A DNA stretch of 49,586 bases from Candidatus Altiarchaeales archaeon (GTDB lineage: Archaea; Altiarchaeota; Altiarchaeia; IMC4; SCGC-AAA252-I15), in the NCBI GenBank assembly GCA_014729705.1, contig WJJK01000045.1, positions 1-49,586 on the forward strand. The letters are read 5' to 3'. Positions 9,779 through 49,586 of this stretch are shown here, piece after piece. Numbering within the stretch: the stretch's first letter is position 1; each line of letters starts with the position of its first letter. The notes under the pieces were generated by a model, which ran no database searches, had not been told where the DNA came from, and saw nothing but the letters and a program-made list of their open reading frames with translations. Made by a program: the position numbers and the translations under genes.

Positions 9779-9779
9779 G

Positions 9780-12884: not shown

Positions 12885-13553
12885 ATGAGCAAAAAAACGG
12901 AAATCAACGAAAAAGATTTAGACAATAAGGCGGAAAAGGACCCTAAGTCCAAGCGCTGGAATAATGCCAATAGTCGTAAGAACCTGAAGCAGTACCAAAA
13001 AGATAAGAAAGAAGAGCCTGTAGTTCCCGAGGTTGTCTCTGAAGATGAGGAGGACAACACGCAGGCGCAAGCACTGGTTGTAGGTCGCAAGATAAGTCCT
13101 GATTTAGTAAAGAAACTCATGCCGCAGCGGGGAGTACTTACTGCAGCAGAAAAGAAAAGATTTAATGGTATTGTTATCACGTATTTGGCAGATTTTAAAA
13201 ACGAAGAACCAACAGCCGCAGACGTTGATGACATTTTCGAAATAGCCAAAAGCGACATTATGGAGACGCGCCTTTTGCAGGCGTCAAAAAGCGACCCTCA
13301 AGCTTTGGTTAGTATTTCTCAAGCTATTGAAAAGCTTAATAAGAGAAAGCAGCAGGCTAAAGAAAACCTGTCCAGCCGTCGAGTGGATCGCAAAGGAACG
13401 CGAGCTTCTGCTGACGTGAACATCATCGACCTTGTAGTTCAGTTTGATAGTCTCCGCAAGAATGAACAGAGAGACAAAATCGATGCTCTCATGGCCGAAG
13501 AGGACGAGACGTCGCAGAAGCTGCGGAAAGTCCTGGAAGACGACGGGTACTAA
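12885..13553 (+). CDS. putative small terminase subunit (by position)
   Basis: 222-aa basic/charged protein directly upstream of TerL and TAATG-coupled to it. Confidence 0.4.
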   Translation: MSKKTEINEKDLDNKAEKDPKSKRWNNANSRKNLKQYQKDKKEEPVVPEVVSEDEEDNTQAQALVVGRKISPDLVKKLMPQRGVLTAAEKKRFNGIVITYLADFKNEEPTAADVDDIFEIAKSDIMETRLLQASKSDPQALVSISQAIEKLNKRKQQAKENLSSRRVDRKGTRASADVNIIDLVVQFDSLRKNEQRDKIDALMAEEDETSQKLRKVLEDDGY

Positions 13554-18527: not shown

Positions 18528-21164
18528 ATGGTAGATAACAAAAACGTAGAGGAGGGAACCGATAAAGTTTCCGCCCGCGACCTTCTCAAGGAAATGAGAG
18601 AGTTCGCTATCACTGTAGGTGAAGAATGTCCCGAAGGGCATCGAAGAGACCCCAGCAGCGGTCGCTGCCTGCCTATCGGCAGTACAGATCACACTGCCTT
18701 TACTCGAAGCCTCAACGATGATCAAGGTGATGAGTGGAGAGGTCTTGTCGATAAGGACAACGAGACTTTTGATAACGAAGAAAATGTAGCAGATAGAGAG
18801 TCTGCTTCTAATACAGAGAAAGCAGTCGATGCTGATCTGATGGACGAACCTGAAAGTTGTGCCCACGGTACGACTTTTTCTTTTGTTCAAAGAAAATGCG
18901 TTTCTCCTGAGGAGGCTGAAGCTGAAAATAACGATGACAAGGCCATGACCGCCTCTGATGAGTACATTCTTGAGGACGCTAAGAACGGACACGAAGAGGT
19001 TGTTTCTAAGGATCCCCGCGGACGAAGAGATCCAGTGGGGTTTGATTGTCCTCCTAATCAGTTCTTTGACTTCAAGAGGCGTGAATGTATTCCACTCAAC
19101 AAAGATACCGTAATGGCTTCTATCGCTTCTGGTGGCCTGAAGGAAGAAGCTTTTCATGGTGTGGCTTGGACCTCTCCGGATCCTGTTGATGGCCACCGCC
19201 ACGCGGTTACTGTTGATATGGAAGGAAGTGGTAGAACTTCCGTGGCTGTTGGTGGAATCATGGAGCGTTATCCGCACAGCCATGATGTGGAAGATTTCGA
19301 GGTTATTCCCCACGAAGAAGGTGACTACACTTCCCGCCACCCCGGCGGTGTTAATCCTATGGCAGATACTTATGAGATGGAAGCAATGCCTTTGGTAGGT
19401 TCGGAAAGCAAGTTGATGACTGATGCGGAATACGCGGCTGACGAGAAGGAAGCCAAGAGGTCTGATCTTCCAGATGATGCTTTTGGTGTTCCCGAGGATA
19501 GGAAGTTCCCCCTCGATACTTGCGACCGTGTAAGAAACGCAATGGCTCGTTTTAACCAAGCCAAGGGGCTTTCTGCTTCTGATAAGAAGGATCTTAAGAG
19601 AAACATTCTTGAGCGTGCTCTTGAATGTAAGATAGACGTCGAGGAGTTCAAGAACGTAGGTCCTGATGTAGGAGAAGAGACCATCAGAAAGATCGAGAAG
19701 AAAGTAAACGGCTCTTCTGAGGAAGGAAAGAAACTTTCTACCAAGAAGAGGAAGGGGCTCCCTGCGAGCGCCTTTGGTGTTCCTGGAAAGAGAAAGTTCC
19801 CTCTCGATACCTGCAACAGAGTTCGTAATGCAATGGCTCGATTCAATCAGGCCAAGGGACTTACTTCCAGCGAGAAAGCGACTCTACGCCGAAAGATTAT
19901 GGCCAGAGCTAAGAGTTGTGGTATTAAGGTAGACGAGTTTGCCAAGGCTACTACCGCTGAGGATTTTGAAAAGGTTTTCGCTCAGCTTATTGTTCCTTTC
20001 CAGAGGGAAAAGGCTAAGCGCTTGGATGCCTACCACGCCGATAAGGCCAAGGATAAAAAAGGACCTTGCCCTCCAGGGATGGAATGGGATCCAAAGACTA
20101 AGCGCTGCATTAAGATGAAGGCTTTCTATGATAAGGTAGTCGACAAGGCCAGCCACCAGGAAATCATTTCCAAGGACCCTGCTGGTAGAAGAGATACCGA
20201 GGGCTTCCAGTGCCCAGACGGATGGTTCTTCGATTTTAAGAACAGAAAGTGCATCCCTCTTGACCCAGAAGAAAAGAGAAACTTCCAGCCTGGTGATACC
20301 ACTAAGGCCGCGGAAGAAGACGCTGCCAAGAGGGATCTTGCTCCCTCCCCTAAGGGTAAGCCTGCCCGACTTCCTCAAGATTGTCCAAAGGGAACTATTT
20401 GGGATCCTAGGCTCAGGAAGTGTCGTCCATTAGATCCTCCGGACGGTGCGCAACCTCCTCGTGGTAAAGCCTCTGATGATGAGGGCTCTACCAATCCCAA
20501 CGGCCCTGGCAAAGAGAAAGACACTAAGGGTTGCCTGCCTTTCCAGGTTTGGAACCCAAAGACTCAAAAGTGTGAGACGCGAAAGAAGCAGTTCAAAGGA
20601 AAGTCAGATTCTGAGAAGGCTGTTAACGCTCAGCCCAGCAATAGAGAAGGACTGGTTGGAGCCCCAGCCGGCAAAGTAAAGCATGCTACGGATTGTCCTC
20701 CTGGAACTATTTGGGACGGAAAGAACAGGCTTTGCAGGCCGCTGGACTCTATGGACAAGAGTCGTCCTGACGGAAACAGCCCCCAGAATCCGCAGAACTT
20801 TGCTACAGTAGAGGATGTTGTAGAGAACATGTCCTTGGCAAAGCTCATAGCTCACCTGGATCAGATCATCAGAGAAGAGGTTCAGGATACTCGAAAGGAG
20901 AAAGCCAAGGTAGCTGCTAAGGATCTTCCCAACGAGGCCTTCCCGCCTTCCTTGGTAGGCTCTACTCGCCGAAGTCTCATGCACCACTCTCCTGATGTAA
21001 CCGATCCTTATGACACCGGTACTGTGGATGTTGCCCGCCTTCGCAATGCCCTTGCTCGCGTGAATAAGATAAGTGGTTATTCGGAAAGGGCTGTTGATGA
21101 GGCTTATGATCATCTTCTATTCCATGCCCGAGAGGTTGTCGCCCAGCATTTGGGAAAAAAGTAA
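18528..21164 (+). CDS. head-module protein with 8 Cys-pair modules and a duplicated FPLDTC..RVRNAMARFNQ module
   Basis: 878 aa. Contains repeats of the form CPxGxxWDxxxxxCxPLD and two ~63-aa tandem copies. Confidence 0.7.
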   Translation: MVDNKNVEEGTDKVSARDLLKEMREFAITVGEECPEGHRRDPSSGRCLPIGSTDHTAFTRSLNDDQGDEWRGLVDKDNETFDNEENVADRESASNTEKAVDADLMDEPESCAHGTTFSFVQRKCVSPEEAEAENNDDKAMTASDEYILEDAKNGHEEVVSKDPRGRRDPVGFDCPPNQFFDFKRRECIPLNKDTVMASIASGGLKEEAFHGVAWTSPDPVDGHRHAVTVDMEGSGRTSVAVGGIMERYPHSHDVEDFEVIPHEEGDYTSRHPGGVNPMADTYEMEAMPLVGSESKLMTDAEYAADEKEAKRSDLPDDAFGVPEDRKFPLDTCDRVRNAMARFNQAKGLSASDKKDLKRNILERALECKIDVEEFKNVGPDVGEETIRKIEKKVNGSSEEGKKLSTKKRKGLPASAFGVPGKRKFPLDTCNRVRNAMARFNQAKGLTSSEKATLRRKIMARAKSCGIKVDEFAKATTAEDFEKVFAQLIVPFQREKAKRLDAYHADKAKDKKGPCPPGMEWDPKTKRCIKMKAFYDKVVDKASHQEIISKDPAGRRDTEGFQCPDGWFFDFKNRKCIPLDPEEKRNFQPGDTTKAAEEDAAKRDLAPSPKGKPARLPQDCPKGTIWDPRLRKCRPLDPPDGAQPPRGKASDDEGSTNPNGPGKEKDTKGCLPFQVWNPKTQKCETRKKQFKGKSDSEKAVNAQPSNREGLVGAPAGKVKHATDCPPGTIWDGKNRLCRPLDSMDKSRPDGNSPQNPQNFATVEDVVENMSLAKLIAHLDQIIREEVQDTRKEKAKVAAKDLPNEAFPPSLVGSTRRSLMHHSPDVTDPYDTGTVDVARLRNALARVNKISGYSERAVDEAYDHLLFHAREVVAQHLGKK

Positions 21165-27318: not shown

Positions 27319-30300
27319 TTGCCCAAACCAAACGCACTTCCTACTTATTCAAAGGATAACGTACTTTATGCCGATGAGGGGCTTTCTGATCTAACCCCCG
27401 TCGGTGTTATTATTTCAAGTGGTACGTTGATTAGCGGTGCATTGACTTTCGGCTCTTTGGTCGGAGACATTGACACTGCTAATGGTGCGTTCTCTGAGAC
27501 CTTAACTGTTTCCGGTATACCGGTAGACATCTCTGCTGGTGGTGGTCCTGGAGCGGGAGTTTCTTCTCTGAATAGTCAGCAAGGCGCTATAACCTTGCAA
27601 GGTCAAGGCGGGACTACTATTACTACCGTCGGCCAAACTATAACTATTTCTGGAGCCACAGGTGGAGGAAGCAATGACCACTCTGCCTTGAATAACTTGG
27701 ACTTTGCAAGTTCAGGACACACTGGTTTTGCGTCCGAAGCGGCGCTAACAACCACCAGCGGACATCTACAAAATCAGATTGATGGTATAGATGATCATCC
27801 CCGCTACACAGACGCAGAAGCAGTTTCTGGCACAGAGGCTGCACGGGTCACCCTTTCAGGGCACCTACAGTCGGAAATAGATCTAAACGCTTCTGCTATT
27901 CTGCAACTTGACGGTGAGGTTGGGGCTCTCGATTCCGAACTGGTTACGGTTAGTGGTCATCTACAGGATCAGATAGATAATCTGCCAGCATCTTCGGGTA
28001 CAGCAGCTTCCGTTAATGCGCTTCAGGGTAGTGATGGTATAACCGTAATCTCCGGTTCTAATGTAGATACTATCCAGGGTTTCCGTCCTGAGTTTATTGC
28101 AGCTTCAGGTTCTCTACAAACACAAATAGATTCAATAGATACAGGAAGTTCTACAGGCGGCAAAGCTCTTGTAGGCTCTGATGGCATTACGGTAGTTTCT
28201 GGGTCTAACCAAGTAGATATTCAAGGTTTCCGTGGAGAATTTGTGAGTGCTTCGGGGACCTTACAGTCCCAGATAGATAGTAACAGTTCTGCGACTTCAA
28301 TCAACACCTCTAACATTGCAGATAATACCTCGCAGATACTTACTACTTCAGGGCATCTTCAAAACCAAATAGATTCTATCCAAATAGACGAACTTGAGCC
28401 TGCTATCGTGGGTCAAGACGGCATAACGGTAACCAGCGGCACTAACACGACTCTTACCGGGTTTAGGCCCGAATTTGTTGCAGCATCTGGGTCTCTTCAG
28501 TCCCAGATAGATTCCCTTGGGGCATCTGAGTTAGATACTGCTATAGTTGGTTCAGACGGTATAGCTGTAGTCTCGGGTTCTAACGAAGTAGAAATACAAG
28601 GTTTTCGAAATGAATTTGTAGCCTCTTCTGGTAGTTTACAAAACCAGATTGATAATCTGGATGACATTTATGCTACCGATGCCGAACTTGTATCTGTTTC
28701 TGGGCATCTCCAATCTCAAATAACAGGATCAAGTGATTTACAATCAGCTTATGATGCTGGGGACGGGATAATCACTACCAGCAGCGGCAAGCCCGCGGAG
28801 CTGGATGGCACCGGAGAGTTGGTTGCTGTCACTGGGACCTTCACTCAGGGCTTAACTATTGGTTCTACTTCCGTTGACATCTATGAGAACTCAATCACAA
28901 TAGATGGGGACAGAGTAGTAGTTGAACCTGATTTCGTCTCTGCTTCAGGGTATTTGGACAGTCGTATTACCTCCATGGATCCTAATGGTATTAGTTTCAA
29001 AGGGGCTATTGTTTCTAAAACTAACAACCAGAATCTCCCCAGCGGCGCTAATACCCCTGTTAACTTTCAGTCTGTACAGTATGATCATGGGGGTTGGTTT
29101 GACGCTTCTCAGCCAACCCGTTTCACGGTACCTTCGGGTGTTTCCCGGGTAGTAGTTTTTGCTAATGTTAGCTTGGAAAATAGTGGGGCTACGGGTAAGC
29201 AGCAGGTTAAGATTACCCGTAATGATCAATTTGGGCAGCCCGGATTTCCTATTGCAGGACACGCTCAGGAGACCAGCTCGTCAGATGATCTTTATAATGT
29301 TTGCACTGCCCCGATAGAAGTAACTCCCGGTGACTACTTTGAAGTTCAGGTATTTCATAATCAAGGGGCGGGGATCGATGTTTTTGGGACAGGAAATACC
29401 TGGTTTGGTATTGCCGCAGACAGGACTGGGTTTGAGATTCCTCTGGTTGGTGCTGGCAACGTAACCGTAGTTTCAGGTACTGACGTTATCACTATTTCTG
29501 GCAGCGGTTCTGGAGGAGGTGATCTAACCGATGCCATCGTGGGTGCCGGTGGAAACACCGTCATCTCTGGTTCCAACACAGTCACTGTATCTGGATTCCG
29601 CGATGAGTTTGTGTTGGCTTCTGGCTCTCTACAAGGCCAACTAGACTCTCACACGGGCGATGCAACGCTTCACTTCACTGAAGCCAGCATCGACCACACG
29701 AACATTCAGAACGTAGGTAGTAATACCCACGCCCAGATTGATTCGCACATCTCTGATAGCACCATTCACTTCACCGAAGGCTCTATCGACCACGACAACA
29801 TCCAGAACAACGGGTCGAACAGCCACGCGGAGATCGATACACACCTCGCGGCTCTGGCCACCAGCGGAACTACTAATGCTTCTAACCTTTCCTCACACAC
29901 CGGGGACTCCACCATCCACTTCACCGAAGGTTCCATCGACCATGGCTCTATCTCCGGGCTTGGGGATGACGACCATACCCAGTACACGCGCGCGGATGGA
30001 ACTCGGGCGTTTACTGGTGACCAGAGTTTCGGAAGTAACAACATTACCGATGTGGACACTCTTTATGCCACTCTTATCAGCGGCTCTGAAGATGCCACCC
30101 TGGGAGACGCGGGTTTCGAGGGAGACGGGGTAGTAATCGATGGTACTCTAAGACGCTCAGTTCTGAAGTCCTCGGACATAGGAAGCAACCGTCTGATTTT
30201 GATACACAAGCATAGGCACGATACAACCTTCCCTCCAGCAGAAGCATTCTCCCGCTCTAATACAGACGACAATTCTCACGCTGCGGTGACTAACGGGCAA

Positions 30301-32844
30301 GCCCTTGGCCGGGTTTACTACACCGGTTATGCAGACACTGGTTACGAAGTCGCCGGAATGACCGAAGTTACGGTAGATGATAGCGGTGCTATTTCAGATT
30401 CGTCGATGCCCGGTGTCTTCAACGTCCGGCTGAACGATAACGGTAGTGCTGCCGTAAATCCTCCTGTTGTTGTCTCCGTTTCTGGTAGTGGAGGTATGGG
30501 TGTTGCCGGCGGGATTACTGCCCAGTCAGCGAACATCGGAACCGGTACCTTCACCGAATCTCTGACCATCTCTGGTGTTGCTGTCGACATCGCAAGTGGA
30601 GACGTCACGGACTACGGAGCGACTGGAGATGGCGTAACAGACGATACAGCAGCCATCCAGGCCGCTATGGACGCAGGGGGCGTTATAGTTGTACCATCGG
30701 GTGTATATTCTATAAATCAGGTAGATGTTACTTCCAAGGTAGACGTACGCGCATCTTCAGGGGCCGTCTTCCGGCAGCGCAGCACTGGAGATGAGAACAT
30801 CGCTTGTATCCGGTTTACCACAGGCTCGGACGGCTCGACGTGGGACGGAGGACAGTTCGACGGTGACGCCAGTACCCATGCTTCCAGCTACACGGGCAGC
30901 ACCGAGACCAACAAGCGCGTGTGGACTGGCATTCGGGTGGACGGGGCACCCGCGAATCTCCGCTTCCGCAACATCCACATGTACGACTTCCTGATGAGCG
31001 GCTTCTGGCACCAGAACGCTAACCAGACAGTGTGGGAGAACATTCTTATCGAGCGGTGCGGGAAGGCATTTATTTGTCAGAGAAACGATAGCGGAAGACT
31101 TGCCAACATCGTCTGCCACGAGATTCAAAACCGTAATAAAGCCATCTTCCAACACGCGATTGAGATTCGCGATGCCACCAATCTCACCGTGCTCGACATC
31201 GTCGTCACCGACTTCCAGCCGGACAACGCTGGTGTGGAGCCCACTCCCGGTGCGATTGCGTTCGAGCGGATGCGAGGTATGACTGCAGTCGGCCTCTCCG
31301 CCGACGGGTTTTCCGGGTCGGGCAAAGCAGGCATCGGATTCATTATCGACACCCTCGAGAAATCGAGCGTGACCGGCTTGCTGTGCCGGGACGGTTACGA
31401 GTCGGCTGCAACGGTCAACACATGCTGGGATTCCGCCATCGACCACTTCCACTTTGATCTGGCCTACGAGGACACCATCGGAGGAGGTGCCGAGGGAATC
31501 CGGATTCGAGGAGGAGGGCTCTTCCCGGCTATCGGAGACGGCACTGTGTCTGAGAACGCGAGGGCCAACGAGGGATGTAGGAATTTGCGTCTGTCGAATG
31601 GTCTCGTTATGCGTGCCGTGGGGCAGGGCTACCTGGTGCAGTCAGGGTTTGTGCAGTTCGTCAACTGTCACGCTCTGGGAAACACGCTGCACGGGTTCCA
31701 AAGCAATGAGAACTTGACGGGTGTGGGGACTTTCTCTGGCGGCAGTGCCGTCCCAGTAACTAACGTAGATTTACTGGGATGTTCAGCCACTTATAATGGG
31801 CTTACAGGCTTCTTTGTAGAAGAAGGCGCAAGTATGCAAATCATCGGAGGTTCCTATTCCAATAATGGTAGTGACACCACCGGAGGAAACCAGAGAGCCG
31901 GGATTAGATTACAAAATGCCTCTAAAATTCGCATCGTGGACGCAGATCTGGGCGACACCCAGGACTGGGCGACTAAGAGCCCCGGAGCCTCGTTCGAGCC
32001 TGGCAGCACCACCAACAACCAATTTGATTTGAGTTTGGTAGACCCCAGCTTTGTGCAGGTTGGCCAGTATCTGGTGCTCAAGAATGCCGATGGTTCTGGA
32101 GACGTGACGGCTAAAGTAATAGATAAGCGCAGAGATGACATTACGGTGGAGACATCAAGTCCAGTAACTTTCTCTGCTACGGGCAACACTTCTGCCCTAA
32201 CAGGCACTATTTCTACCACCGGCGTAACGGTTAATGGGACATCGACCGCCTTTCTAACTGAATTAACCGGAAGGACTTATATTGTCAACGGCGGCAACTA
32301 TCGACGTGTGATTCGGGTTAACTCAGACACTAGTGCCGTCATCGAAGAGGCGTTTCCGTCCGACCTGTCCGGTGCCAGCGTCTCCAAGCTGGAGATTGAC
32401 GTGGACCCCTCTTCTAACAATCGCCAGCAATTTGGGATTAGGATGGAAACTGCTGCTTCGGGGATTTATGTGCGGGGTTTGTATGGGGAGGTTTCTAACA
32501 CTTTCTGGAACTTCGCTGCTACCGCAGACCAGGGACTTGAGGCTGGGTCGGAGGTGCTCGGAACTGTAAGGCAGGTAGCCTCCGCTTCTTCGATGTCTGT
32601 GCCTAAAATACAGAACGGTTTTTTCCGGGTTACTGGAACCAACTCAATACAAACTATCCCTGCCCATCCTGAAGGGTCTCAGATTACTCTGTTGTTTAAT
32701 TCTACTGCTGATGTTGAACATAATGCCGGTAACATTTTGCTCCAGGGTGCCTCAGACTGGACCACTATATCCACCAACGATACTCTCACGCTCATAAGCG
32801 ATGGTGTGAACTGGGTTGAGGTGGGACGTTCCGACAATTCTTAG
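27319..32844 (+). CDS. giant mosaic fibre/tailspike protein (repeat stalk, C1q-like domain, His-repeat segment, pectate-lyase-like beta-helix)
   Basis: TTG start. About 10 SG[HS]LQxQID repeats. DVTDYGATGDGVTDDTAAIQAAMDAGGVIVVPSGVYSI is the typical N-cap of right-handed beta-helix depolymerases. Confidence 0.8.
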   Translation: MPKPNALPTYSKDNVLYADEGLSDLTPVGVIISSGTLISGALTFGSLVGDIDTANGAFSETLTVSGIPVDISAGGGPGAGVSSLNSQQGAITLQGQGGTTITTVGQTITISGATGGGSNDHSALNNLDFASSGHTGFASEAALTTTSGHLQNQIDGIDDHPRYTDAEAVSGTEAARVTLSGHLQSEIDLNASAILQLDGEVGALDSELVTVSGHLQDQIDNLPASSGTAASVNALQGSDGITVISGSNVDTIQGFRPEFIAASGSLQTQIDSIDTGSSTGGKALVGSDGITVVSGSNQVDIQGFRGEFVSASGTLQSQIDSNSSATSINTSNIADNTSQILTTSGHLQNQIDSIQIDELEPAIVGQDGITVTSGTNTTLTGFRPEFVAASGSLQSQIDSLGASELDTAIVGSDGIAVVSGSNEVEIQGFRNEFVASSGSLQNQIDNLDDIYATDAELVSVSGHLQSQITGSSDLQSAYDAGDGIITTSSGKPAELDGTGELVAVTGTFTQGLTIGSTSVDIYENSITIDGDRVVVEPDFVSASGYLDSRITSMDPNGISFKGAIVSKTNNQNLPSGANTPVNFQSVQYDHGGWFDASQPTRFTVPSGVSRVVVFANVSLENSGATGKQQVKITRNDQFGQPGFPIAGHAQETSSSDDLYNVCTAPIEVTPGDYFEVQVFHNQGAGIDVFGTGNTWFGIAADRTGFEIPLVGAGNVTVVSGTDVITISGSGSGGGDLTDAIVGAGGNTVISGSNTVTVSGFRDEFVLASGSLQGQLDSHTGDATLHFTEASIDHTNIQNVGSNTHAQIDSHISDSTIHFTEGSIDHDNIQNNGSNSHAEIDTHLAALATSGTTNASNLSSHTGDSTIHFTEGSIDHGSISGLGDDDHTQYTRADGTRAFTGDQSFGSNNITDVDTLYATLISGSEDATLGDAGFEGDGVVIDGTLRRSVLKSSDIGSNRLILIHKHRHDTTFPPAEAFSRSNTDDNSHAAVTNGQALGRVYYTGYADTGYEVAGMTEVTVDDSGAISDSSMPGVFNVRLNDNGSAAVNPPVVVSVSGSGGMGVAGGITAQSANIGTGTFTESLTISGVAVDIASGDVTDYGATGDGVTDDTAAIQAAMDAGGVIVVPSGVYSINQVDVTSKVDVRASSGAVFRQRSTGDENIACIRFTTGSDGSTWDGGQFDGDASTHASSYTGSTETNKRVWTGIRVDGAPANLRFRNIHMYDFLMSGFWHQNANQTVWENILIERCGKAFICQRNDSGRLANIVCHEIQNRNKAIFQHAIEIRDATNLTVLDIVVTDFQPDNAGVEPTPGAIAFERMRGMTAVGLSADGFSGSGKAGIGFIIDTLEKSSVTGLLCRDGYESAATVNTCWDSAIDHFHFDLAYEDTIGGGAEGIRIRGGGLFPAIGDGTVSENARANEGCRNLRLSNGLVMRAVGQGYLVQSGFVQFVNCHALGNTLHGFQSNENLTGVGTFSGGSAVPVTNVDLLGCSATYNGLTGFFVEEGASMQIIGGSYSNNGSDTTGGNQRAGIRLQNASKIRIVDADLGDTQDWATKSPGASFEPGSTTNNQFDLSLVDPSFVQVGQYLVLKNADGSGDVTAKVIDKRRDDITVETSSPVTFSATGNTSALTGTISTTGVTVNGTSTAFLTELTGRTYIVNGGNYRRVIRVNSDTSAVIEEAFPSDLSGASVSKLEIDVDPSSNNRQQFGIRMETAASGIYVRGLYGEVSNTFWNFAATADQGLEAGSEVLGTVRQVASASSMSVPKIQNGFFRVTGTNSIQTIPAHPEGSQITLLFNSTADVEHNAGNILLQGASDWTTISTNDTLTLISDGVNWVEVGRSDNS

Positions 32845-34152: not shown

Positions 34153-35109
34153 ATGTCAGTCCTCAAGCCTATCATTGATAGCATTGTCAATGGTACTTTG
34201 ACGATTACTGCAACGTCACCCTCGGCCGTGGGGACGATGTTTGATAAGATTCAGATCTTTAGGGCTACTTCTGTAAATGGTCCCTTCAGTCTTATAGCCA
34301 CTATAGATTTTTCTTCTCCTGCAGCCTACTGTGATTTAACCAGTACTCCTAAACTTTATTACAAAGCTCAGTATTACAATAGTACCACTATGGTTTCCAG
34401 TACGTTTTCTGATGTGGCACAGGAAACTGGTGTATTCTCCGAGTATAGCGTACCGGAAAGCACGGCTACCTATCCGCCAGAGTTGGCTCTTTCTGACAAC
34501 GATAGGGAAATCGTTGAGTCTATAAGGATAACCGTAGGAGATAGCGGTCTGATAGAGCGGGATCTTTACGATTCTTCTGACCCGCAGTCGGCAGCTGCTT
34601 GCGCTGCTAATATAGACCCAGCTGGTTGTACTTGGGAGTTAACAGAATGGAAAGGTTGGCCACAAAAGGTAGTTCTTAATGGGGAAGAGAAGACCAACAT
34701 CAACGACCCTCAGGTACTTGGTTATCGCTACCTTGTTTTTAGTGGTTCTGGGCCGTGTATTACAGGCTCTTTAGACGTTTTCTATAACCACTTCCGCTTC
34801 TCCGATCGTGAGATTTTATTGGCTTACGATCGGGCCAGAAATCTTTTGATTACTTGTGGTTTGCCGGAATCTAAGGTTACGACAGAGATGCGTATAATGC
34901 AGGCTGCCATTCTTCTTCTTGAAGGAGAGATTAGGGAGCTGTCTCAAAATGCGTTCCGCATTGTGGATGGAGATACTACCTATGATAATAGTGCTACCAT
35001 TCGTTCCCGAACTACTGATTTGGAGGACCTCAAGAGAAAGATTGACAGACTGATTGAATGTGCTCGCTATGAAGCGGCGTACGACATCCAAGGTTGTAGG
35101 ATAGACTAA
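34153..35109 (+). CDS. hypothetical virion-module protein
   Basis: 318 aa, with an AAAGGAGGA SD. Confidence 0.5.
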   Translation: MSVLKPIIDSIVNGTLTITATSPSAVGTMFDKIQIFRATSVNGPFSLIATIDFSSPAAYCDLTSTPKLYYKAQYYNSTTMVSSTFSDVAQETGVFSEYSVPESTATYPPELALSDNDREIVESIRITVGDSGLIERDLYDSSDPQSAAACAANIDPAGCTWELTEWKGWPQKVVLNGEEKTNINDPQVLGYRYLVFSGSGPCITGSLDVFYNHFRFSDREILLAYDRARNLLITCGLPESKVTTEMRIMQAAILLLEGEIRELSQNAFRIVDGDTTYDNSATIRSRTTDLEDLKRKIDRLIECARYEAAYDIQGCRID

Positions 35110-36866
35110 TGCCCAAAAAACTGGTCACCAACAAAATGAAGAAGGACTATAAAAGGCTGATGTCTCAGCTTGTTAGAGATCTTTCCCAGGAGCTGGTAAT
35201 AGTTCAGGAAAGTCCTATGTTTGTAGATTGTCCTAACTGTTTTGAAGCAGGAACCCTTATAGAGACACCTTTTGGAATGAAGAAGATAGAAGACTTCCAA
35301 CCAGGGGATTATATTTTGGACGGCAATGCAGAGCCTCGACTTGTGGATAAAGTATTTCATAGACATACTGACGCATCTTTCACGTCCATTTTTACACACG
35401 GTAACAATGTGGGGTTGACAGCCACTTCCAATCACCACTTAATGGTACATGAAAACAGGGGCACAGCCTACCATCCCATTTTAGGTGGGTCGAAAGAAAA
35501 AGAGATAGGTAACATACAAAAAGGCGATATAGTTTCTAAAGCGATCAGAAAACTACCCCAAGAGCCTTTAGAAAAGCTATGGGTTGATTGGAAAACAAAT
35601 ACACATGGACCTAAAAAAGTTTTGCCAGAAATCTTGGAAGTTACCGATGATTTCTTATTTGCTGTGGGTTTGTATTTGTCCGAAGGCGTTACAAGCAAAA
35701 GCCGAATAGTAAGTTACTGTCTTAATGACTTGGAAGAAGAAATAGGTCATAAAGTTTGTGCGTATTGGAAATCGGTTGCAGAATGTAACTACACGATGTG
35801 TACTAGAGGAGGGGGTAGGAATAGGATTTTTGAGATATATAGTTCTTATTTGGCTGATCTATTAGATAGTTGGTGTGGACACGGCGCGCAAAATAAAAAA
35901 ATACCCACCTCCTTGTATTACAGGTTGAATGCCCGTCAAACTTTAGTGTTGTTGTTTGGTTTGTTTGTCGGCGCTGGTCATTATGAAAAACAATATGATA
36001 GTGTGGTATTTAGTACTATTTCTAAATCGTTGGCATATCAAGTTTACAATCTACTTCTATCTTGTGGATTCGGTGCCAGTATACTTTCTCAGCCTAGTAA
36101 GGTGGGATCGGACGGCATTTTTAGACAAGAATCGTTCGTAGTTAGATATTGGACAAATAAAGATAAGGCACAAAGAGGGACAATAAGAACTGAGGATAGA
36201 ATCTATCAGGTAGTAAAATCTGTAGCGCACAGTCATAAATCAGTACCTGTTTGGAATCTAGAGGTTCAAACCGAACACAGTTATATTGCAGATGGCTTTA
36301 GTGTACAGAACTGCATATGGGATTCTGTTAATAAAAAATCCTCTAATGTCTTTGATGGTTCTTTTACGTCCGCAACTACTATTTTTTCTGGTACCAGTGA
36401 GGAGCGGGTTATAAATCCTATATCTTTCACTGTTGGACGTTGTCCTGTTTGTATAGGTGAAGGTCAGATTTTTACCAACAAAGAAATCTGCATTCCTGCT
36501 ATGATAAATTTTTTCTCTGGAACCGGCATGCGCCGTGGTTTATTTATGAGCACTGCTGCAGGTAAGGAAGGGATGAACTTGGTGGTGGTTAAGACTCTCG
36601 CCTGCCACTATGAACTTTTACAGAACAATGAAACTTTTTTTATTCATAACAATGTTAAATGTGTGAAGTTCAAGCCTCCTTTCCTAAGAGGGTTGGGTGG
36701 AGAAGAGACTGTTTGTGAGACTATTCTTCAGACTGCCGACGAAGGACAAAGGACTTCTGGTAAGTTTGGTGGTGGAGACAAGTTAAGTCGAGATGATGAT
36801 CCAAGAAAGAGGATAAGAGGTCCTTCTGATATTCTGGATCAGAGAGGTAAACTGAGAGGTAGGTAA
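35109..36866 (+). CDS. virion-module zinc-knuckle protein precursor containing a 358-aa intein
   Basis: Layout is ...FVDCPN | CFEAGTLIE...GFSVQN | CIWDS.... The 227-aa extein carries CPNC and CPVC pairs. Confidence 0.75.
   Translation: MPKKLVTNKMKKDYKRLMSQLVRDLSQELVIVQESPMFVDCPNCFEAGTLIETPFGMKKIEDFQPGDYILDGNAEPRLVDKVFHRHTDASFTSIFTHGNNVGLTATSNHHLMVHENRGTAYHPILGGSKEKEIGNIQKGDIVSKAIRKLPQEPLEKLWVDWKTNTHGPKKVLPEILEVTDDFLFAVGLYLSEGVTSKSRIVSYCLNDLEEEIGHKVCAYWKSVAECNYTMCTRGGGRNRIFEIYSSYLADLLDSWCGHGAQNKKIPTSLYYRLNARQTLVLLFGLFVGAGHYEKQYDSVVFSTISKSLAYQVYNLLLSCGFGASILSQPSKVGSDGIFRQESFVVRYWTNKDKAQRGTIRTEDRIYQVVKSVAHSHKSVPVWNLEVQTEHSYIADGFSVQNCIWDSVNKKSSNVFDGSFTSATTIFSGTSEERVINPISFTVGRCPVCIGEGQIFTNKEICIPAMINFFSGTGMRRGLFMSTAAGKEGMNLVVVKTLACHYELLQNNETFFIHNNVKCVKFKPPFLRGLGGEETVCETILQTADEGQRTSGKFGGGDKLSRDDDPRKRIRGPSDILDQRGKLRGR
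35238..36311 (+). mobile_element. intein with a (possibly degenerate) LAGLIDADG domain
   Basis: Starts with Cys1 (CFEAGTLI), has a TSNH block B, motifs FLFAVGLYLSEG and LLFGLFVGAGH, ends VWNLEVQTEHSYIADGFSVQN and is followed by a +1 Cys. Confidence 0.8.
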
Positions 36867-42804: not shown

Positions 42805-45800
42805 TTGGTAGAAGAGAGCTTCAAGCTTAATCTAAATATAGAACTTGATGAAAGTGGCCTTGCGGGACTTCAAAAGCAGATAGAAAGAAGTGTAAATAAA
42901 GCTTTCTCTGATGCTTTTAGAAAGGTCAAGTTGCCTACGCCCGGCGCTACAGGAGGTGGCGCTGGTCCTACTCCGGCAACTGCACGAAGTGCCCGTGAGG
43001 CTATTTCTGTATCTGGGCAAGATCTTGGAAAGAGTGTCCAGCAAGCTTTGAGAGGCGAGCTACGCGGATTCGAAGCTGCTGCTAAACGTATGGAACAGGC
43101 GGTAGACAGATTGGCGCGCGTCATGGGAGGAGGACGCGGAGGCGGAGCTGCTTCTGGAGGCCCTTCCAGAAGACAACAACAGGTTGAGGAAGTTTTTAGG
43201 GCCCGCGTTGGTCGTATATCCGAGATGCGAGGGAGGCAAAGAACTGCCCGAGAAGCTGGAACTCCTGCCGGAGAACGAGAAGCCGAGCGCCTTGAGGTGG
43301 AGATAGCCAGAGAAAAGAAAAAGGCTTTTAGAACAGCACAGAGACGCCAGCGCCTCCAGGAACAGTCTGCTAAGGCGGCCGAAAGAACTGCCAAGTCTGA
43401 GGAAGACCTAGCCCGCTCCACAGAGAAGCTGGCGGCTGCACGTCGGAGAGAGGCTGCTGCTACCGAAAGCAGAGGGCGTCAAGGTGCCGGTCCTTCCGGC
43501 CCTGCCCCTACACGTGGAAGAGAACAGGTAGCTTCCCGGCAAGTAGGTGCTTCCAATCAACAGACAGGTGCTAATATAGATGTCACCCGACGTTCGGGTT
43601 CTCAAAGGACCGCCGGATCCACTGGAGAAATTGTAACCGATGCCCCTCGTATTCGCGATAACAGAGTAGGTACTGTACAGGATAGGCCTCAGTTTAGAAA
43701 GGAAGCACAAGAAAGAGAGAGGGCCAGGGCCGGAGCCGGTGCGGAATATATAAAGAGTGCTCAGGCTACCTCCGAACGGGTTGCTGCAAGCATAGGAAAG
43801 CTTGAAGCGGCTATTAGAACTATGCCTCAGTTTAGGGATGTTGATCTTTCCAAGGCTCTTGGGCTGCCAGGCAAGGAGTCCCTTGGTGTTGGTAGAGGAG
43901 CAGCTGCCACCGTTAAGCTTCCTTCTGGAGAAGAGAGGGTTATACGCCAGGCAGTTAATATTCTATCAGATGAGATGGGCAAAGTTTCTGTTGAGGCTGG
44001 GGACGTAATCTCCAAGCGTATTGACAAATTGCTTTCCAGTGAAGCTATGAGTAAGATAGGTAAGACAGCCCGTTTCCGACCTGAGCGCGCCGAAAATATG
44101 CTCAGGGCGGAAATAGGCAAGATATTTGAAGCTCCTAAGCTTGAATCTACTAAGGTAATGGGCGGTTTTGCTACAGCCGGACAGTCCCATATGACTTTCA
44201 AGCCTACAGAAGAACAGCGCAAAAGAATAGCATCCAAGGCCCCTGGGGCAGAGCAGATAGCAGAGGCTATGGTAGTTCTGCAGGAAATGTCCAGGGAATC
44301 CGAATCCTTCAAAAAGGCAGGGCTTGAGGTTGTACATGTTTTGGGTATGGCGGAGCAGGACGCTGCTGCAATGGCAGATTCTATCGAAGCTTTTGCTAAG
44401 GGAGCTTCTGATAGTATAGAGGGAATTGTTCAGACAAGAAATCTGGCGGCTATGGGTGTTGGTGGTGCCGGAACTATGAGACAAGCACGTTCCTTCCTTG
44501 TTACCCAAACACAAGAGATGGTAGGGGGAGAGGAACCCAAGATTAAGGGAATAGGAGAAGAAGCAGCATACGCTGGTGATATTTTTGGAAAGAGAGCGGT
44601 AAAGCATCTCAAAACTGCTGTTGTTTCTGCGGACCTTATGCCCGAGCTTAAGGAAGATCAGTTCCTACTGGACAAAAAAGCAGCAGAACAGATGGGTATG
44701 ATAGAGAAAAAGAGTAAGCTTGTTAAAGATGTTGGTGAGGACATAGTTCCTGGTATGAAGTTGCAACATAAGCAGGTACTGGGGGCTGATGTAAAGGGTA
44801 GAGCTGTAGAGTTTGACCTTAAAGGGGCTGAGGCCGAGGTTAAGAGAGTAGAAAAAGTCATAAAGAATGGTGTTGAGGCTTGGAAGATTCATTATGAAGA
44901 GCTCAACCAGATGGTTACGGGTGGTAAGATGACCACCCGCGCCGGCGGTAAGGGTATAGTACGAGTTGAGGAGGATATTGCCGGTAAATACGGTCTTCCT
45001 AAGGGAACTCAAGTGGCTATGTCGGCTGAAGGTATGGCCAAGAGAGGCGATTTAAGGAGCATGATTGAGATGCATGCTTCTAACATTTCTGAGGCTACTA
45101 CTAAGTCAGGACAAGAAGTGGCTGACATGATAGTAGATAGAATGAAGCACGGTTCTGATTATATGGGAGAAACCATTGATCAGGCCATAAAGAACGTCGC
45201 GTCTGAGTTAGGTATTAAGGGCTATACTGGTGCAGAGGTTATGCGGGAAGGTCCTCTGGCTAAGGGCAAGGGAGGCGAAGCGGCAGTTATGACCGGTGAG
45301 CTGGCTTGGATGCGCCTGGCAAAGGAGGGACAGAGAGGTCCGGCCCCTGTGGACCCTCGTTTCTTGGATAAGCCCGCCCAACAGGCCATGGAGCAGCGCG
45401 CCGAAACTGTTGCCCAGTCCAAAGCCATGCAGAGTGAGATGTCAAAGGTTATAGAAAGTAACTACGAGTACGTAGCTACCTTGCAGTCTATTGCTGGCGC
45501 TACGGACGAGGTCACAGAAGGTTTGAAGGAAGTCAAGCCGGAGAGATTCAAAGGACTCACTGGCGGAATGATGGATCCTTCTACACTTAAGGGAACCCTC
45601 TTAGATCCTGATCTTGCCGAGCCCCTAAAGGTTATGTTGCCCAAGAGGGGTGGCGGTGAGGAGGCTATGCGCTTGCCCTCTATGGGAAGGGGTCTGGGTA
45701 AGCGTGATTATTTTGAGACTGAACTAGGTCAGGTGGGTGCCAGTGACATAACTAAACTTTATGATAAAATAATCCAGCAAGCCAAACAAATAAGAGTGGC

Positions 45801-48800
45801 TACTGGACAAGTAGACATTACCGAGGATGCTGAGGCTTATGGAGAGGCAGCTCAAATAACTTCCAGGGCCATGAAGGACCAGATACAAACGATCTATAAG
45901 TTGGGTTCTAAAACTGAAGAAGGTAAGGCGGCGATGAAAGAGTTCATCGATTCCTTTATGCCTTTAATAAAGCAGCTTGAAGGACCTGCAGGTATTGAGT
46001 ATCAGAAGGTAAAGAAGACAGGAGAAAGGGAAACAGTTGCTTATCAAGGTACCGCAGAAGAGTACGTACAGAGCCGTAAAACTCTTGAACAAAAGATGTT
46101 CGGTATTCAGGACTTGCTGTCTGAAAGATCGGCCCGCCGGGCCAAAGTAAGTCCTCAGAGCGCTTGGGGTAGGCAGGGTTATGTCGCAACCGAAAACGTA
46201 CCTCGCGCAGGTGCTATGTTTGATCCTAAAAATGCAGAAGTACTTAGAAAGTCTATGGATCTTTTGGGAGTATCCTTAGAGGAGGATGCGGAGCATGTTG
46301 ACAAGCTTCATGACAGGTTAGAGAGGCTTAAGTCAATACTTGTAGAGACTCTGTCCATGGCAGGTGTAGGAACCGCGGGCGGACGCCCTGCTTCCGAGTC
46401 TTTGCGCCCCTACGCTCAGGCCATGGGGGGCGGTATAGCTGAGGCACCTATGGGGGTCGCTACAGAGTTTAGAACAGATATATCTGCTTCTCTTGCGAAG
46501 GCTAAAGAAAGATTAGAGCAGCTGGCTGATTCTGGTAAGAACGTAGATCAGGCCCTTGCGGCGGTGGAGAGGATTTCTGCCCTCCAGACTGATGTGGAAG
46601 GTTTGCCTCGCGACGCTGTTATGTTGAGTGAGACAGATTATGAAAATCTCAAGCAGTCTATTATGAAGCGGCAGCGAATAGGCGAAGCTGAAGCCACCAA
46701 GAGAATGGAAAGAGGTGTTTCTCTGCGCTACCCAGTGACTGGTGGTCAGAGTATGCAGGCAGTTAAGATTCTAAAAGATACAATGGGTAAGCTACCGGAA
46801 GGTAAGATTGGCGTTGCAGGACCTCCTGCCGGAGAACCTGAGGACATTGAAAAGGTCACAGGTCAACTTAGTGAGTTTAGAGCTTCCCTTGCCAAGGTTA
46901 TAGAGGATAATAAGGGTTTCGGTGCTGAAGCGGATCAAGCACGCTCTGAAATAGCCGAACTGGATCCAGTTATAGAGGGACTTCGACAGTCTTTCCTTAG
47001 CGCTACTCAGAATCTTGATTTCGACGGAGACAAGATTGCTGTATTTGGAGCGCTGACAGAGGAGGCATCGAAGTCTCTTCGTACGTTCACTGAAGTTGCT
47101 ATGAGAGGAGGAATGTCCTTTGAAAACATAATGAGTACTATTTTGACTGCTTCCAAGGGCAAGCCTGGCGGAGGAATGGGAGGTGTCGAAGAATACGCTC
47201 AGTTGTTCGGCCAGGTTGCTAAGGGCAGGACTGGTAAGTACCGTCAAGCAGTTATGGCTCCTGACACTACAGAGACTACGCGTTTTGAGTCCACAGCCCA
47301 CACAGCCGGAAAGTTGTCCGTTAGTTTGCTCACTGATGCCTTCAATAAGCTTCAGATGTCTATTCTAGGGGGAGCTGAGCAGACCGGAGACGCGATGTCT
47401 ACTGCGGTAGAGCGTATAATGTTGTTTATTAACAAATCCCTGGCACAAAAGCACGGCGGTGGGGGAGCCGGCGGGGCTGACCCTATGGAATTTATAGAGT
47501 CCTTCCGTAGAGGACCTGAAGGTCTTAAGGAAATCTTTTCCGGTATGGATGAGATGGGAGATGATATCTACGGAGAGCTCGGTAAGTTCAACAAAGAATA
47601 TCGTGAGCGTATGTACAACATGCTCATCGCTCAACCAAGAGATACTGTTCAAGAGTTAGCTAAGCAAGCTGGGGTTTTGGAGAGCGAAGCGGACCTAACT
47701 CCGGAAACTTTTATACCTGTTATAAAGGACATGGTTAATGAGCTGGACCTAAAGGGACAGTTTAAGCGTATGTGGGAAATGCTTGAAGACAACATGAAGC
47801 AATCTCTTATGAAGGAGGGTATGTCTGCGGAAGAAGTATCTGCCAAGATGAGGGATATGCTTACAAAGCCTACCAAACAGACTGGTAAACCGGCAGGACT
47901 GGATCTAAATAGACTGATGAAGAACATGTTCCCGGAGTACAGGGCTACCCGAAAGGTAGGGGTAAGGGAGATGGAGGGAGAATCTCCTATGGGTAAAGCC
48001 CAACAAGTACTTAAGATGTTGGGGCTTCATGTGGCCGAGAGAATAGAAGAGACAGAGGAATACTTTGATGAAGACGTAATACAAGGGGCAGCAGTACAAC
48101 TTATATCTAAGATTCATTCTTTCTTAGAGTCTGTTTCTGATCAGTTTGAGATATCTACCACTGCTGAGTTTGCCCAGAGACTCGGAAGAACTCCCGAACA
48201 AGCTGCTGGAGTAAGAGGTCAGTACATTAGAGGAAAGGGCGATGAGCCTGGTAAGATAATGCTTTCCGAGGAGAAAATTTTCAAGCCCCTTATAGAGGCC
48301 ATTGCTACCTTGGATAGGGTCGCTAAGGGAGAGATACCTCCAACAGTTGAAGCTTTCCAAAGCCTTGGTGAGGCTTTGTCTAGGTTTGCTTCTACCATGT
48401 CCCACGAAGGTATCCATAAGGCCGCAGACCAGTTCCCTGAAGTTATACAAAATCTGGTCCGACGTATAACTTCCTCAAGTGGTGATCTAAGCCAGCACTC
48501 GGGAGCTATTTATGAAGCCTTAAGTAAGCTTTCCAATGTGGCTAAACTTAGAGGTAAGTTTGAGCAGGTTTCCAAGGCCCAGAAGGGAGGTGCTACTGAG
48601 TTTGCAGGGATGCCTATAAAGGAGGCCAAGCAGGAGATAGGTCGTCGTTTGGCCAGAGTTTCTACAGAGGAGTTAGTCGCTCACCTGGCCGATCGCCAGA
48701 AGTGGCAAAAGGTATTTGGTCACCTTCCAGAAACTGTACAGCAAGCAGCCAGGGATGCATTTGAAGAACTCTCCCAGTCTGCACCTGACATTGTAAAGCC

Positions 48801-49586
48801 TGTTCAGAATTGGTCAAATGAAATTCTATCTTCTCTTGTTGAAATAATGACTTCTACTTTCCAAGGACAAGGTGTGGGGGCTGCCAGAGAGGCTGCCCAG
48901 CAGAGAAGAGATGCCTTGGAGTCGGGGGAGCCTTACCCCGGTAGAGAAAGATTCCATCAAATGCGCGAAGTTTTGGGTAAGGGAGAAGAAACCCTGGCAT
49001 ATGGTAGAAGAACCCATGGACTTGCTCCTTTTCAGAAAGCAGAAGGAAGAGTTGGTATAGGTGGTCGCCTCGAAATAGGAGGGGAGCAGGTAGTAGGTCA
49101 GATAGGTGCCCAGGTACGCAATCTTTTGGAGAGCGCTCTTAGAGGAGGAGCATTTGATGATCCTGGTGCTGCAGCTGAGTTGGAGAAAGATTTTAAAGCC
49201 GCTGCCCGTCAGTACTATGAGGCTTTGAAGGGCCTTGGTAGGGATCAGTTTAGCGGAAACGCTTGGAAGGAATACAACAAGGTTCTTCTCGAGTTCCAGG
49301 CAGCTGAGGCGCAGTCTCTTATAAACAAAGCGCGCCAGATGGAAGAGCAGATTTCAGAAATGAGAAAGGCAGGTCAGACTGACATGCCTGAGTTCCGCGA
49401 TCTGCTGGATAGATTTAATGAAACGGTTCAAGAACTTTTCCGTTCCTACGAGAAGAACATTAAGTTAGGAGGCAAAGGAAGAGGTACTGCCTCCGGACTG
49501 GCCGTTACCCCGGACCAGCTAATCTCTGAACCGGCATTGGAGATGGGTGTTAAGCCTACGGGCGCACAATATCAGCAAGTAATGCA
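42805..49586 (+). CDS. giant virion-module protein (>2,260 aa, 3'-open) containing RpoB-like and RpoC-like double-psi beta-barrel motifs: candidate single-chain RNA polymerase
   Basis: Hand translation of frame 1 is open from TTG 42805 to the window end, with GGAGG at 42791-42795 and an in-frame TAG at 42802-42804. GGKMTTRAGGKGIV lies at 44920-44961, RYPVTGGQSMQAV at 46726-46764 and NLDFDGDKIAVF at 47011-47046. The ORF is absent from the supplied track. Confidence 0.8.
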   Translation, partial: MVEESFKLNLNIELDESGLAGLQKQIERSVNKAFSDAFRKVKLPTPGATGGGAGPTPATARSAREAISVSGQDLGKSVQQALRGELRGFEAAAKRMEQAVDRLARVMGGGRGGGAASGGPSRRQQQVEEVFRARVGRISEMRGRQRTAREAGTPAGEREAERLEVEIAREKKKAFRTAQRRQRLQEQSAKAAERTAKSEEDLARSTEKLAAARRREAAATESRGRQGAGPSGPAPTRGREQVASRQVGASNQQTGANIDVTRRSGSQRTAGSTGEIVTDAPRIRDNRVGTVQDRPQFRKEAQERERARAGAGAEYIKSAQATSERVAASIGKLEAAIRTMPQFRDVDLSKALGLPGKESLGVGRGAAATVKLPSGEERVIRQAVNILSDEMGKVSVEAGDVISKRIDKLLSSEAMSKIGKTARFRPERAENMLRAEIGKIFEAPKLESTKVMGGFATAGQSHMTFKPTEEQRKRIASKAPGAEQIAEAMVVLQEMSRESESFKKAGLEVVHVLGMAEQDAAAMADSIEAFAKGASDSIEGIVQTRNLAAMGVGGAGTMRQARSFLVTQTQEMVGGEEPKIKGIGEEAAYAGDIFGKRAVKHLKTAVVSADLMPELKEDQFLLDKKAAEQMGMIEKKSKLVKDVGEDIVPGMKLQHKQVLGADVKGRAVEFDLKGAEAEVKRVEKVIKNGVEAWKIHYEELNQMVTGGKMTTRAGGKGIVRVEEDIAGKYGLPKGTQVAMSAEGMAKRGDLRSMIEMHASNISEATTKSGQEVADMIVDRMKHGSDYMGETIDQAIKNVASELGIKGYTGAEVMREGPLAKGKGGEAAVMTGELAWMRLAKEGQRGPAPVDPRFLDKPAQQAMEQRAETVAQSKAMQSEMSKVIESNYEYVATLQSIAGATDEVTEGLKEVKPERFKGLTGGMMDPSTLKGTLLDPDLAEPLKVMLPKRGGGEEAMRLPSMGRGLGKRDYFETELGQVGASDITKLYDKIIQQAKQIRVATGQVDITEDAEAYGEAAQITSRAMKDQIQTIYKLGSKTEEGKAAMKEFIDSFMPLIKQLEGPAGIEYQKVKKTGERETVAYQGTAEEYVQSRKTLEQKMFGIQDLLSERSARRAKVSPQSAWGRQGYVATENVPRAGAMFDPKNAEVLRKSMDLLGVSLEEDAEHVDKLHDRLERLKSILVETLSMAGVGTAGGRPASESLRPYAQAMGGGIAEAPMGVATEFRTDISASLAKAKERLEQLADSGKNVDQALAAVERISALQTDVEGLPRDAVMLSETDYENLKQSIMKRQRIGEAEATKRMERGVSLRYPVTGGQSMQAVKILKDTMGKLPEGKIGVAGPPAGEPEDIEKVTGQLSEFRASLAKVIEDNKGFGAEADQARSEIAELDPVIEGLRQSFLSATQNLDFDGDKIAVFGALTEEASKSLRTFTEVAMRGGMSFENIMSTILTASKGKPGGGMGGVEEYAQLFGQVAKGRTGKYRQAVMAPDTTETTRFESTAHTAGKLSVSLLTDAFNKLQMSILGGAEQTGDAMSTAVERIMLFINKSLAQKHGGGGAGGADPMEFIESFRRGPEGLKEIFSGMDEMGDDIYGELGKFNKEYRERMYNMLIAQPRDTVQELAKQAGVLESEADLTPETFIPVIKDMVNELDLKGQFKRMWEMLEDNMKQSLMKEGMSAEEVSAKMRDMLTKPTKQTGKPAGLDLNRLMKNMFPEYRATRKVGVREMEGESPMGKAQQVLKMLGLHVAERIEETEEYFDEDVIQGAAVQLISKIHSFLESVSDQFEISTTAEFAQRLGRTPEQAAGVRGQYIRGKGDEPGKIMLSEEKIFKPLIEAIATLDRVAKGEIPPTVEAFQSLGEALSRFASTMSHEGIHKAADQFPEVIQNLVRRITSSSGDLSQHSGAIYEALSKLSNVAKLRGKFEQVSKAQKGGATEFAGMPIKEAKQEIGRRLARVSTEELVAHLADRQKWQKVFGHLPETVQQAARDAFEELSQSAPDIVKPVQNWSNEILSSLVEIMTSTFQGQGVGAAREAAQQRRDALESGEPYPGRERFHQMREVLGKGEETLAYGRRTHGLAPFQKAEGRVGIGGRLEIGGEQVVGQIGAQVRNLLESALRGGAFDDPGAAAELEKDFKAAARQYYEALKGLGRDQFSGNAWKEYNKVLLEFQAAEAQSLINKARQMEEQISEMRKAGQTDMPEFRDLLDRFNETVQELFRSYEKNIKLGGKGRGTASGLAVTPDQLISEPALEMGVKPTGAQYQQVM

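Follow-up and report, generated by a model that had tools for sequence, protein, structure and literature searches.

In the Thermus phage P23-45, the N-terminal part of gp96, a tape measure protein of 5002 residues, is an active, virion-borne RNA polymerase (RNAP) that transcribes the pre-early genes (PDB 8H2M/8H2N; PMC10770324). Fusion of a polymerase to a tape measure protein has been shown experimentally for P23-45 only and inferred for three close relatives, all of them Thermus phages, and in the literature searched we found no description of a tape-measure-fused polymerase outside P23-45 and these relatives. Here we describe a giant open reading frame (ORF) that runs off the end of contig WJJK01000045.1 (assembly GCA_014729705.1), whose 49,586 nucleotides, read on the forward strand, are called the window below. 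Residues ~540-800 of this ORF are most probably the beta/Rpb2-like half of a single-chain, two-barrel RNAP (residues ~540-1720) that lies within a giant tape measure protein and would be delivered at infection.

Like gp96, the protein carries in one chain a double-psi beta-barrel (DPBB) of the beta type (DPBB-B) and then one of the beta-prime type (DPBB-A, with DFDGD), both N-terminal to the tape measure core of a protein of ~4000-5300 residues. Also as for gp96, the gene stands in the tail module after the terminase, portal and head genes, and its delivery role is presumably the same. The two proteins differ in the layout of the polymerase itself, which starts after ~520 residues here and near residue 1 in gp96, and in the connector between the barrels, which consists of ~490 structured residues here and of 67 disordered residues in the clampless gp96 (PMC10770324). 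The DPBB-B described here has a GxKx5GxKG motif and an insertion at the flap position, whereas gp96 is without both and has ~22 residues between ED and GLKG; an HExxH motif, invariant here, is likewise absent from gp96.

The beta/Rpb2-like module

The ORF starts at a TTG codon at position 42805, with GGAGGAAAAGG and an in-frame TAG ahead of it. It stays open through the final codon of the window, whose end cuts it, and so has a length of at least 2260 residues. Its product is held at NCBI as MBD3260378.1, "hypothetical protein GF334_01650, partial". An earlier note, made by reading the letters of the window, had proposed that this chain contains an RpoB/Rpb2-type barrel with two conserved lysines upstream of a beta-prime-type DFDGD, and the fold matches and invariant residues given below support that proposal. 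The peptide quoted in the note is the exact translation of nucleotides 44446-45075 on the forward strand, with GGKMTTRAGGKG at residues 706-717 of the ORF, MRQA at 558-561 and NLDFDGD at 1403-1409; the part of it said to span residues 706-770 actually ends at H757, the codon of which ends at nucleotide 45075, and so covers residues 706-757.

A template-free AlphaFold2 model of residues 520-1719 (1200 residues; mean predicted local distance difference test score (pLDDT) 83, predicted template modelling score (pTM) 0.71) was compared with the PDB using Foldseek and gave 394 matches with E<=1e-3. The best 50 of the 394 were all second-largest RNAP subunits, namely Rpb2, RPC2, RPA135, archaeal B and vaccinia Rpo132, matched at E~1e-8 over 312-399 columns with a probability of 1.00, and the top matches in BFVD were viral Rpb2-type subunits. 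When residues 540-800 were modelled alone (pLDDT 81, pTM 0.67), 176 PDB matches with E<=1e-3 were obtained, and the best 50 of the 176 were all Rpb2-type or bacterial beta chains (E 2.6e-8 to 9e-6, 208-334 columns, query TM-score 0.28-0.48). Because this smaller model on its own again gives Rpb2-type and beta matches, the beta-like module lies within the coordinates that the earlier note had flagged.

The secondary structure of both models fits a split double-psi barrel, with strand-strand-helix-strand at residues 604-640, an insertion at 641-701, and strand-strand-helix-strand-helix at 707-764; the strands of the insertion between the barrel halves fall at positions 119-122, 128-130, 137-148 and 151-161 of the smaller model. 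The structural alignments are long enough to take in a conserved block upstream of the barrel, in which G575 and P578 are invariant and G554 and R562 nearly so. We reject a location of the true DPBB-B nearer to DFDGD, since the Rpb2 matches come back when residues 540-800 are modelled by themselves.

A word-indexed protein search gave one homologue only, a 40%-identical fragment, and tblastn of the ORF against 50,697 phage records, P23-45 included, gave no match, so that no cultured relative was found; an exhaustive search covering 1.84 billion representative proteins returned 33 homologous proteins, 27 of them with E<1e-30 and from several metagenome sources, and the majority of them 4000-5300 residues long. 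Conservation was read from alignments of 16-18 of these sequences, which are 26-64% identical to the query. On the beta side E617, D618, G706, K708, G714, K716 and R747 are invariant, and both G-x-K-x5-G-x-K-G and NLDFDGD are kept across the family, with a spacing of ~690 residues in every full-length member. Among 20,000 shuffled versions of the ORF, none had the stricter pattern G.KM..R.G.KG[VI][IV], and 0.075% had the looser G.K...R.G.KG. The strings of E. coli beta that the earlier note had cited are present in the real rpoB, starting at residues 679 and 1063. From the motif that the note took to be shared with them, G706, G714, the two lysines and R747 stand as invariant positions, while R712 and the E-x-H pair (E755, H757) are not conserved in the family; these last are the equivalents of R1069, E1114 and H1116 of E. 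coli beta.

The register of the module on beta can be read from two profile comparisons. When the family hidden Markov model (HMM) of residues 540-800 was run against PDB sequences, it returned 10 matches with E<=10, all of them RNAP beta chains and none from a non-polymerase family, at E values that are all sub-threshold: the non-virion beta-like chain of AR9 (E 0.26), mycobacterial beta 858-932 (E 0.34) and Thermus beta 821-887 (E 1.0-1.3). In these matches GsKlttraGiKG falls on the beta lysine motif, R747 on the arginine of PRRM, and ED on LEDAIVISE of AR9. The second comparison used hhalign with profiles of proteobacterial beta and beta-prime, for which 58 genomes were drawn on, and it equates K708, G714, K716 and R747 with K1065, G1071, K1073 and R1106 of E. 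coli beta. A further alignment of ORF 540-645 with beta 660-840 (P=0.0032) places LKTAxV..PE.xEDQxL so that E617/D618 correspond to E813/D814 (NFEDSILV), a pair which the earlier note had missed. The note had also equated MRQA with MQRQA of beta, an equation that is not established: hhalign prefers ARSFQ on TRSNQ (P=0.0032), the MRQA register comes out as the second alternative with P=0.55, and MRQA itself is kept in three sequences only, the window ORF and its two closest relatives. Among Pfam families, the window sequence scores best against PF00562 (RNA_pol_Rpb2_6), with residues 675-771 on profile positions 189-288 (E 0.026).

Taken against cellular beta/Rpb2, with E. coli RpoB as the reference, the module shares the ED pair, GxKx5GxKG, the arginine of R1106 and an insertion at the flap position, and beta/Rpb2 is the best fold match for residues 540-800. 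It differs in its low identity (10-18%), in the size of the flap-position insertion (~60 vs ~230 residues), and in being fused in one chain with the beta-prime-like half.

The second barrel and the catalytic-type residues

Both motif sets lie in one ORF. On the beta-prime side the invariant residues are R1308, P1310, T1312, G1313, S1316, G1333, N1403, D1405, D1407, G1408 and D1409, and the DPBB-A region of the 1200-residue model has the expected strand pattern. Chaban et al. (2024) used [RK]xP 20-100 residues ahead of DxDxD as a filter (Supplementary Data 4, PMC10770324); in the present ORF R1308-Y-P1310 is followed, after 94 residues, by D1405. With hhalign, NLDFDGDkiavf...ea aligns with E. 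coli beta-prime 455-483 (NADFDGDQMAVHVPLTLEA) at P=7.6e-4 to 8e-5, and GVSLRYPVTGGQSMQAVKI pairs with another beta-prime segment as the top, non-significant alignment. An HMM of residues 1295-1570 run against the PDB gave mainly coiled-coil and dynamin noise, with RPB1 at E 0.92, and phmmer with the DFDGD region found no polymerase in the PDB.

A helical hairpin of ~55 residues (1345-1401, window 46837-47007) sits in DPBB-A between GKIGVAG and NLDFDGD, and its length is kept across the family. The homologue with 40% identity (L001) has its ORF interrupted at positions 1880-2010, where the frame shifts just past GKIGVAG, inside DPBB-A and ahead of NLDFDGD; the likeliest cause is an indel introduced by assembly, not a true split into two subunits.

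The model also offers candidates for a bridge helix and a trigger loop. A helix of 33 residues (1489-1521) is followed by a helix, a glycine loop with pLDDT<50 and another helix (1529-1570); K1503, N1543 and L1546 are invariant in this stretch, and D1511, N1514, K1549 and G1551 nearly so. It is plausible, on the model and on conservation, that these are the two elements, respectively, and restricted hhalign runs against beta-prime gave no sequence support for either. Between the barrels, the mixed alpha/beta connector may play a clamp-like role, and because no cysteine occurs in the 2260 residues of the ORF (window 42805-49584), zinc-binding elements like those of the beta-prime clamp are impossible in the part read. 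The pTM of 0.71 over 1200 residues is compatible with one compact assembly; by analogy with gp96, the two barrels would pack face to face into one active site. Downstream of the polymerase module, an HExxH motif may be a metallopeptidase site that processes the fusion or acts on the cell wall. No usable Pfam match came from the N-terminal region, the connector or the stretch around HExxH. The features of the ORF are collected in Table 1.

Table 1. Features of the giant ORF and their positions in the window.
Feature	Position	Strand	Remarks
Giant ORF, probable N-terminal half of a ~4650-aa tape measure protein with embedded RNA polymerase	42805..49584	+	N-terminus fits the family consensus MVEExFKIGI
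Beta/Rpb2-like module, residues 540-800: hybrid-binding-type region and DPBB-B, with the whole flagged stretch inside it	44422..45204	+	
Upstream conserved block, residues 548-592, GGAG.MR.ARSF ... GGE.P.I.G.GE..AY	44446..44580	+	
DPBB-B, N-terminal half, residues 599-640, LKTAVV...PELKEDQFLLDKKAAE	44599..44724	+	invariant E617-D618 at nt 44653-44658
Beta-rich insertion of ~60 residues (641-701), at the flap/wall position of cellular beta/Rpb2	44725..44907	+	
DPBB-B, C-terminal half, residues 702-765, TG-G-K708-MTTRA-G-G-K716-G-IVRVE ... GTQVAMSAEGMAK-R747-G	44908..45099	+	
Structured connector of ~490 residues between the barrels (801-1294), mixed alpha/beta	45205..46686	+	pLDDT mostly 80-92
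Beta-prime-like DPBB-A, residues 1295-1420, R1308-Y-P-V-T-G ... GKIGVAG ... NLDFDGD	46687..47064	+	NLDFDGD at nt 47011-47031
Candidate bridge helix 1489-1521 (GKLSVSLLTDAFNK) and candidate trigger loop 1529-1570 (INKSLAQKHGGGG)	47269..47514	+	model, conservation
HExxH (HEGIH), residues 1867-1871, ~150 residues past the polymerase module	48403..48417	+	H1867, E1868 and H1871 invariant

The conserved residues bear on whether the module still works. It could be a catalytically dead relic of a polymerase, kept in the tape measure solely to give it structure or to set its length: it lies within a structural protein, its sequence similarity to active RNAPs is very low, and R712, at the position of beta R1069, varies along with E-x-H. 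A relic would lose its catalytic residues, however, and here the three aspartates, both lysines, ED, R747 and RxP are invariant at 26-64% identity while their surroundings vary; the analogous module of gp96 is moreover active (PMC10770324). We therefore consider a dead relic very unlikely, and the gp96 precedent would lead one to expect an active enzyme.

What such an enzyme copies is a separate matter, and the sequence shows neither its template nor its product. The same two-barrel core in the order beta, then beta-prime, is shared by QDE-1, the RDRs and PolD (PMC10770324), so that the module might be a QDE-1/RDR-type RNA-dependent RNA polymerase, a PolD-like DNA polymerase or a primase-like enzyme. 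Yet the best 50 PDB matches of both models are all second subunits of DNA-dependent multisubunit RNAPs, with no QDE-1, RDR or PolD chain among them, and the motifs are canonical: DFDGD with its glycine, and GxKx5GxKG and ED of the beta type. An activity of this other kind appears to us quite unlikely.

Two described single-chain enzymes with the beta-like barrel first, gp66 (PDB 6VR4) of phi14:2, a crAss-like phage, and Neurospora QDE-1 (2J7N), are of the same general build as the present module; neither is among the 50 best PDB fold matches, and the gp96 structures 8H2M/8H2N are also absent from the 50 best of both models. The phi14:2 protein is a very large, virion-packaged protein that is ejected into the host, but it is not a tape measure protein, and, in common with QDE-1, it has DFDID (Ile/Val at position 4 in their clade) and a connector of ~140 residues where the present family has DFDGD and ~490 residues. 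The best BFVD match to the module in its full extent is segment 1 of A0A8S5SD80, a "Minor tail protein" of the uncultured Siphoviridae sp. ctnpt50, which aligns over 1183 columns with the whole 1200-residue module (TMq 0.38, E 1.2e-7). This protein has 9% identity and is known from a predicted structure alone; judged by that structure, it may be another family of polymerases fused to a tail protein.

Probable tape measure fusion and phage context

The identity of the remainder of the protein, which the earlier note had missed together with the published precedent of P23-45 gp96, comes from its full-length homologues. At ~residues 2150-3100 these carry Pfam PhageMin_Tail (PF10145) and several of the PHROG families for the tail length tape measure, and two of the homologues are named TP901-family tape measure proteins by IMG. 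Homologue P0003, with 4653 residues, is 56% identical to the window ORF overall and 64% identical over residues 520-1719, and has PF10145 and PHROG tape-measure families at residues 2370-3100; in P0003 and P0004 the tape-measure families lie ~650-820 residues downstream of the polymerase region. The window itself is a fragment of a tailed-phage genome, with the large terminase, the portal and other structural genes upstream of the giant ORF, and the genes on either side of the giant ORF show synteny with related contigs. From the tape-measure families of the homologues and this structural gene context we therefore take the ORF to be the N-terminal half of a tape measure protein with a two-barrel RNAP. 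Because the proteins are labelled only "hypothetical protein" or "TP901 family tape measure protein", a transcription enzyme has been missed in their annotation.

The related contigs share the gene order upstream in the window (about 219, 280, 630, 290 and 360-380 residues), and homologous genes are found on a JGI contig of 295,848 bp (L085; 3300022719 Ga0248485_1000019) and a Logan contig of 58,498 bp (L002; SRR14954404). The lineage may be one of large or jumbo phages. Tailed-phage genes stand here on a contig that was placed in the bin of Candidatus Altiarchaeales archaeon; either the binning of this phage contig was wrong or it hints at a host among the archaea. No second, gp64-like polymerase was found in the window by a DxDxD scan of ORFs of 150 residues or more.

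Several other genes of the window are worth recording. The large terminase is interrupted by an intein with a LAGLIDADG endonuclease (window 13553-16624), and a second intein, with Hint and LAGLIDADG, occurs in a tail-region ORF of 585 residues (35109-36866). Positions 2499-3155, 5478-6362 and 8093-10382 encode an HNH endonuclease, a GNAT acetyltransferase and a cluster for nucleotide metabolism, which comprises thymidylate synthase, dihydrofolate reductase and a dNMP-kinase-like gene. After the portal gene comes an ORF of 878 residues with DUF6582 and a chitin-binding-type (CBM_14) signal (18528-21164), and an ORF of 1841 residues with a pectate-lyase-like stretch, possibly a fibre or depolymerase, lies at 27319-32844. 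No tRNA genes were found in the window.

Weight of the evidence and proposed role

A number of points weigh against the reading of this ORF as a tape measure protein with an embedded two-barrel RNAP. Where sequence alone is compared with an RNA polymerase, no score clears a significance threshold: the PF00562 match scores 14.1 bits, below the gathering threshold of 23.4, and is found in 3 of the 18 members; PF00623, the commonest Pfam family among the members, is sub-threshold too (E 0.021 in 4/18); the best local hhalign alignment, ORF 692-758 on E. coli beta 1049-1117, has P=0.077 and is not significant; and the whole ORF, searched against Pfam, PHROGs and PDB sequences, had no relevant match. 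Along the same lines, phmmer with residues 520-800 found no polymerase in the PDB and the full-length family HMM matched only coiled-coil noise there. The fold models rest on an alignment of only 18 sequences, and on the beta side R712, E755 and H757 are weaker points for want of conservation. As for the second barrel, no beta-prime chain is among the 50 best PDB fold matches, the best such match being a fragment of ASFV RPB1 in BFVD at E 0.078, and the gap of ~690 residues between the two motif sets far exceeds that of any characterised single-chain RNAP. Similarity to gp96 is undetectable: hhalign of the family profile against gp96 residues 1-1300, taken as a single sequence, gives a probability of 1.2%. 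Finally, the ORF is cut at residue 2260, before the tape measure core, and for this reason we infer the fusion in the window copy from the homologue that is 56% identical.

Pressed furthest, these points would mean that the motif resembles RpoB by chance and that the shallowness of the alignment has produced a spurious predicted fold, for every sequence-based score is individually non-significant and the modelling alignment is small. Against this, the motif was absent from all of the shuffles and is invariant in the family, all 10 of the weak PDB sequence matches are RNAP beta chains, and two independent models match at E~1e-8 with probability 1.00. The ED hallmark, moreover, played no part in finding the region and is both invariant and rightly placed, and DFDGD with RxP stands downstream in the same ORF. 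A chance resemblance is on this evidence extremely improbable.

The preferred reading, a tape-measure-borne RNAP, would work as follows. From the DPBB-B side E617/D618, K708, K716 and R747 would line the active site and contact the RNA 3' end and the incoming NTP, while D1405, D1407 and D1409 of DPBB-A would hold the catalytic Mg2+; the long helix after DPBB-A and the glycine-tipped helical hairpin that follows it would serve as bridge helix and trigger loop. As the polymerase forms one chain with the tape measure, we propose that it would be assembled inside the tail tube and, at infection, be ejected along with the tape measure into the cell, where it would transcribe the first phage genes without the host RNA polymerase. 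Its place in the virion and the early timing of its transcription would, again, match what is known of gp96.

A more far-reaching version of this reading is possible, and we put it forward tentatively, as something rather unlikely in its entirety. In it, a polymerase core of the cellular type was fused to a tape measure independently, or in a fusion that diverged anciently, in an uncultured lineage of large phages; a clamp-like connector was kept, the HExxH site would release or activate the polymerase, and the host is possibly archaeal, this last because the contig is binned with an Altiarchaeales metagenome-assembled genome.

The module offers a second and very different test case for tape-measure-borne polymerases, with a long structured connector in place of a clampless, flat enzyme, and it bears on the question of how a polymerase module of ~130 kDa is stored in, or passes through, a tail tube. 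The canonical cellular motifs in its beta-like half should be useful for placing single-chain phage polymerases relative to the cellular enzymes. The same design as in P23-45 would here be present in a separate family, of large phages from metagenomes (with contigs of up to 296 kb), without detectable gp96 similarity, which suggests that the tail tube serves to deliver a polymerase more widely than is known. If the fusion did arise independently or diverge anciently, then loading the tail tube with a transcription enzyme would be a recurrent route to host-independent early transcription and not an oddity of Thermus phages.

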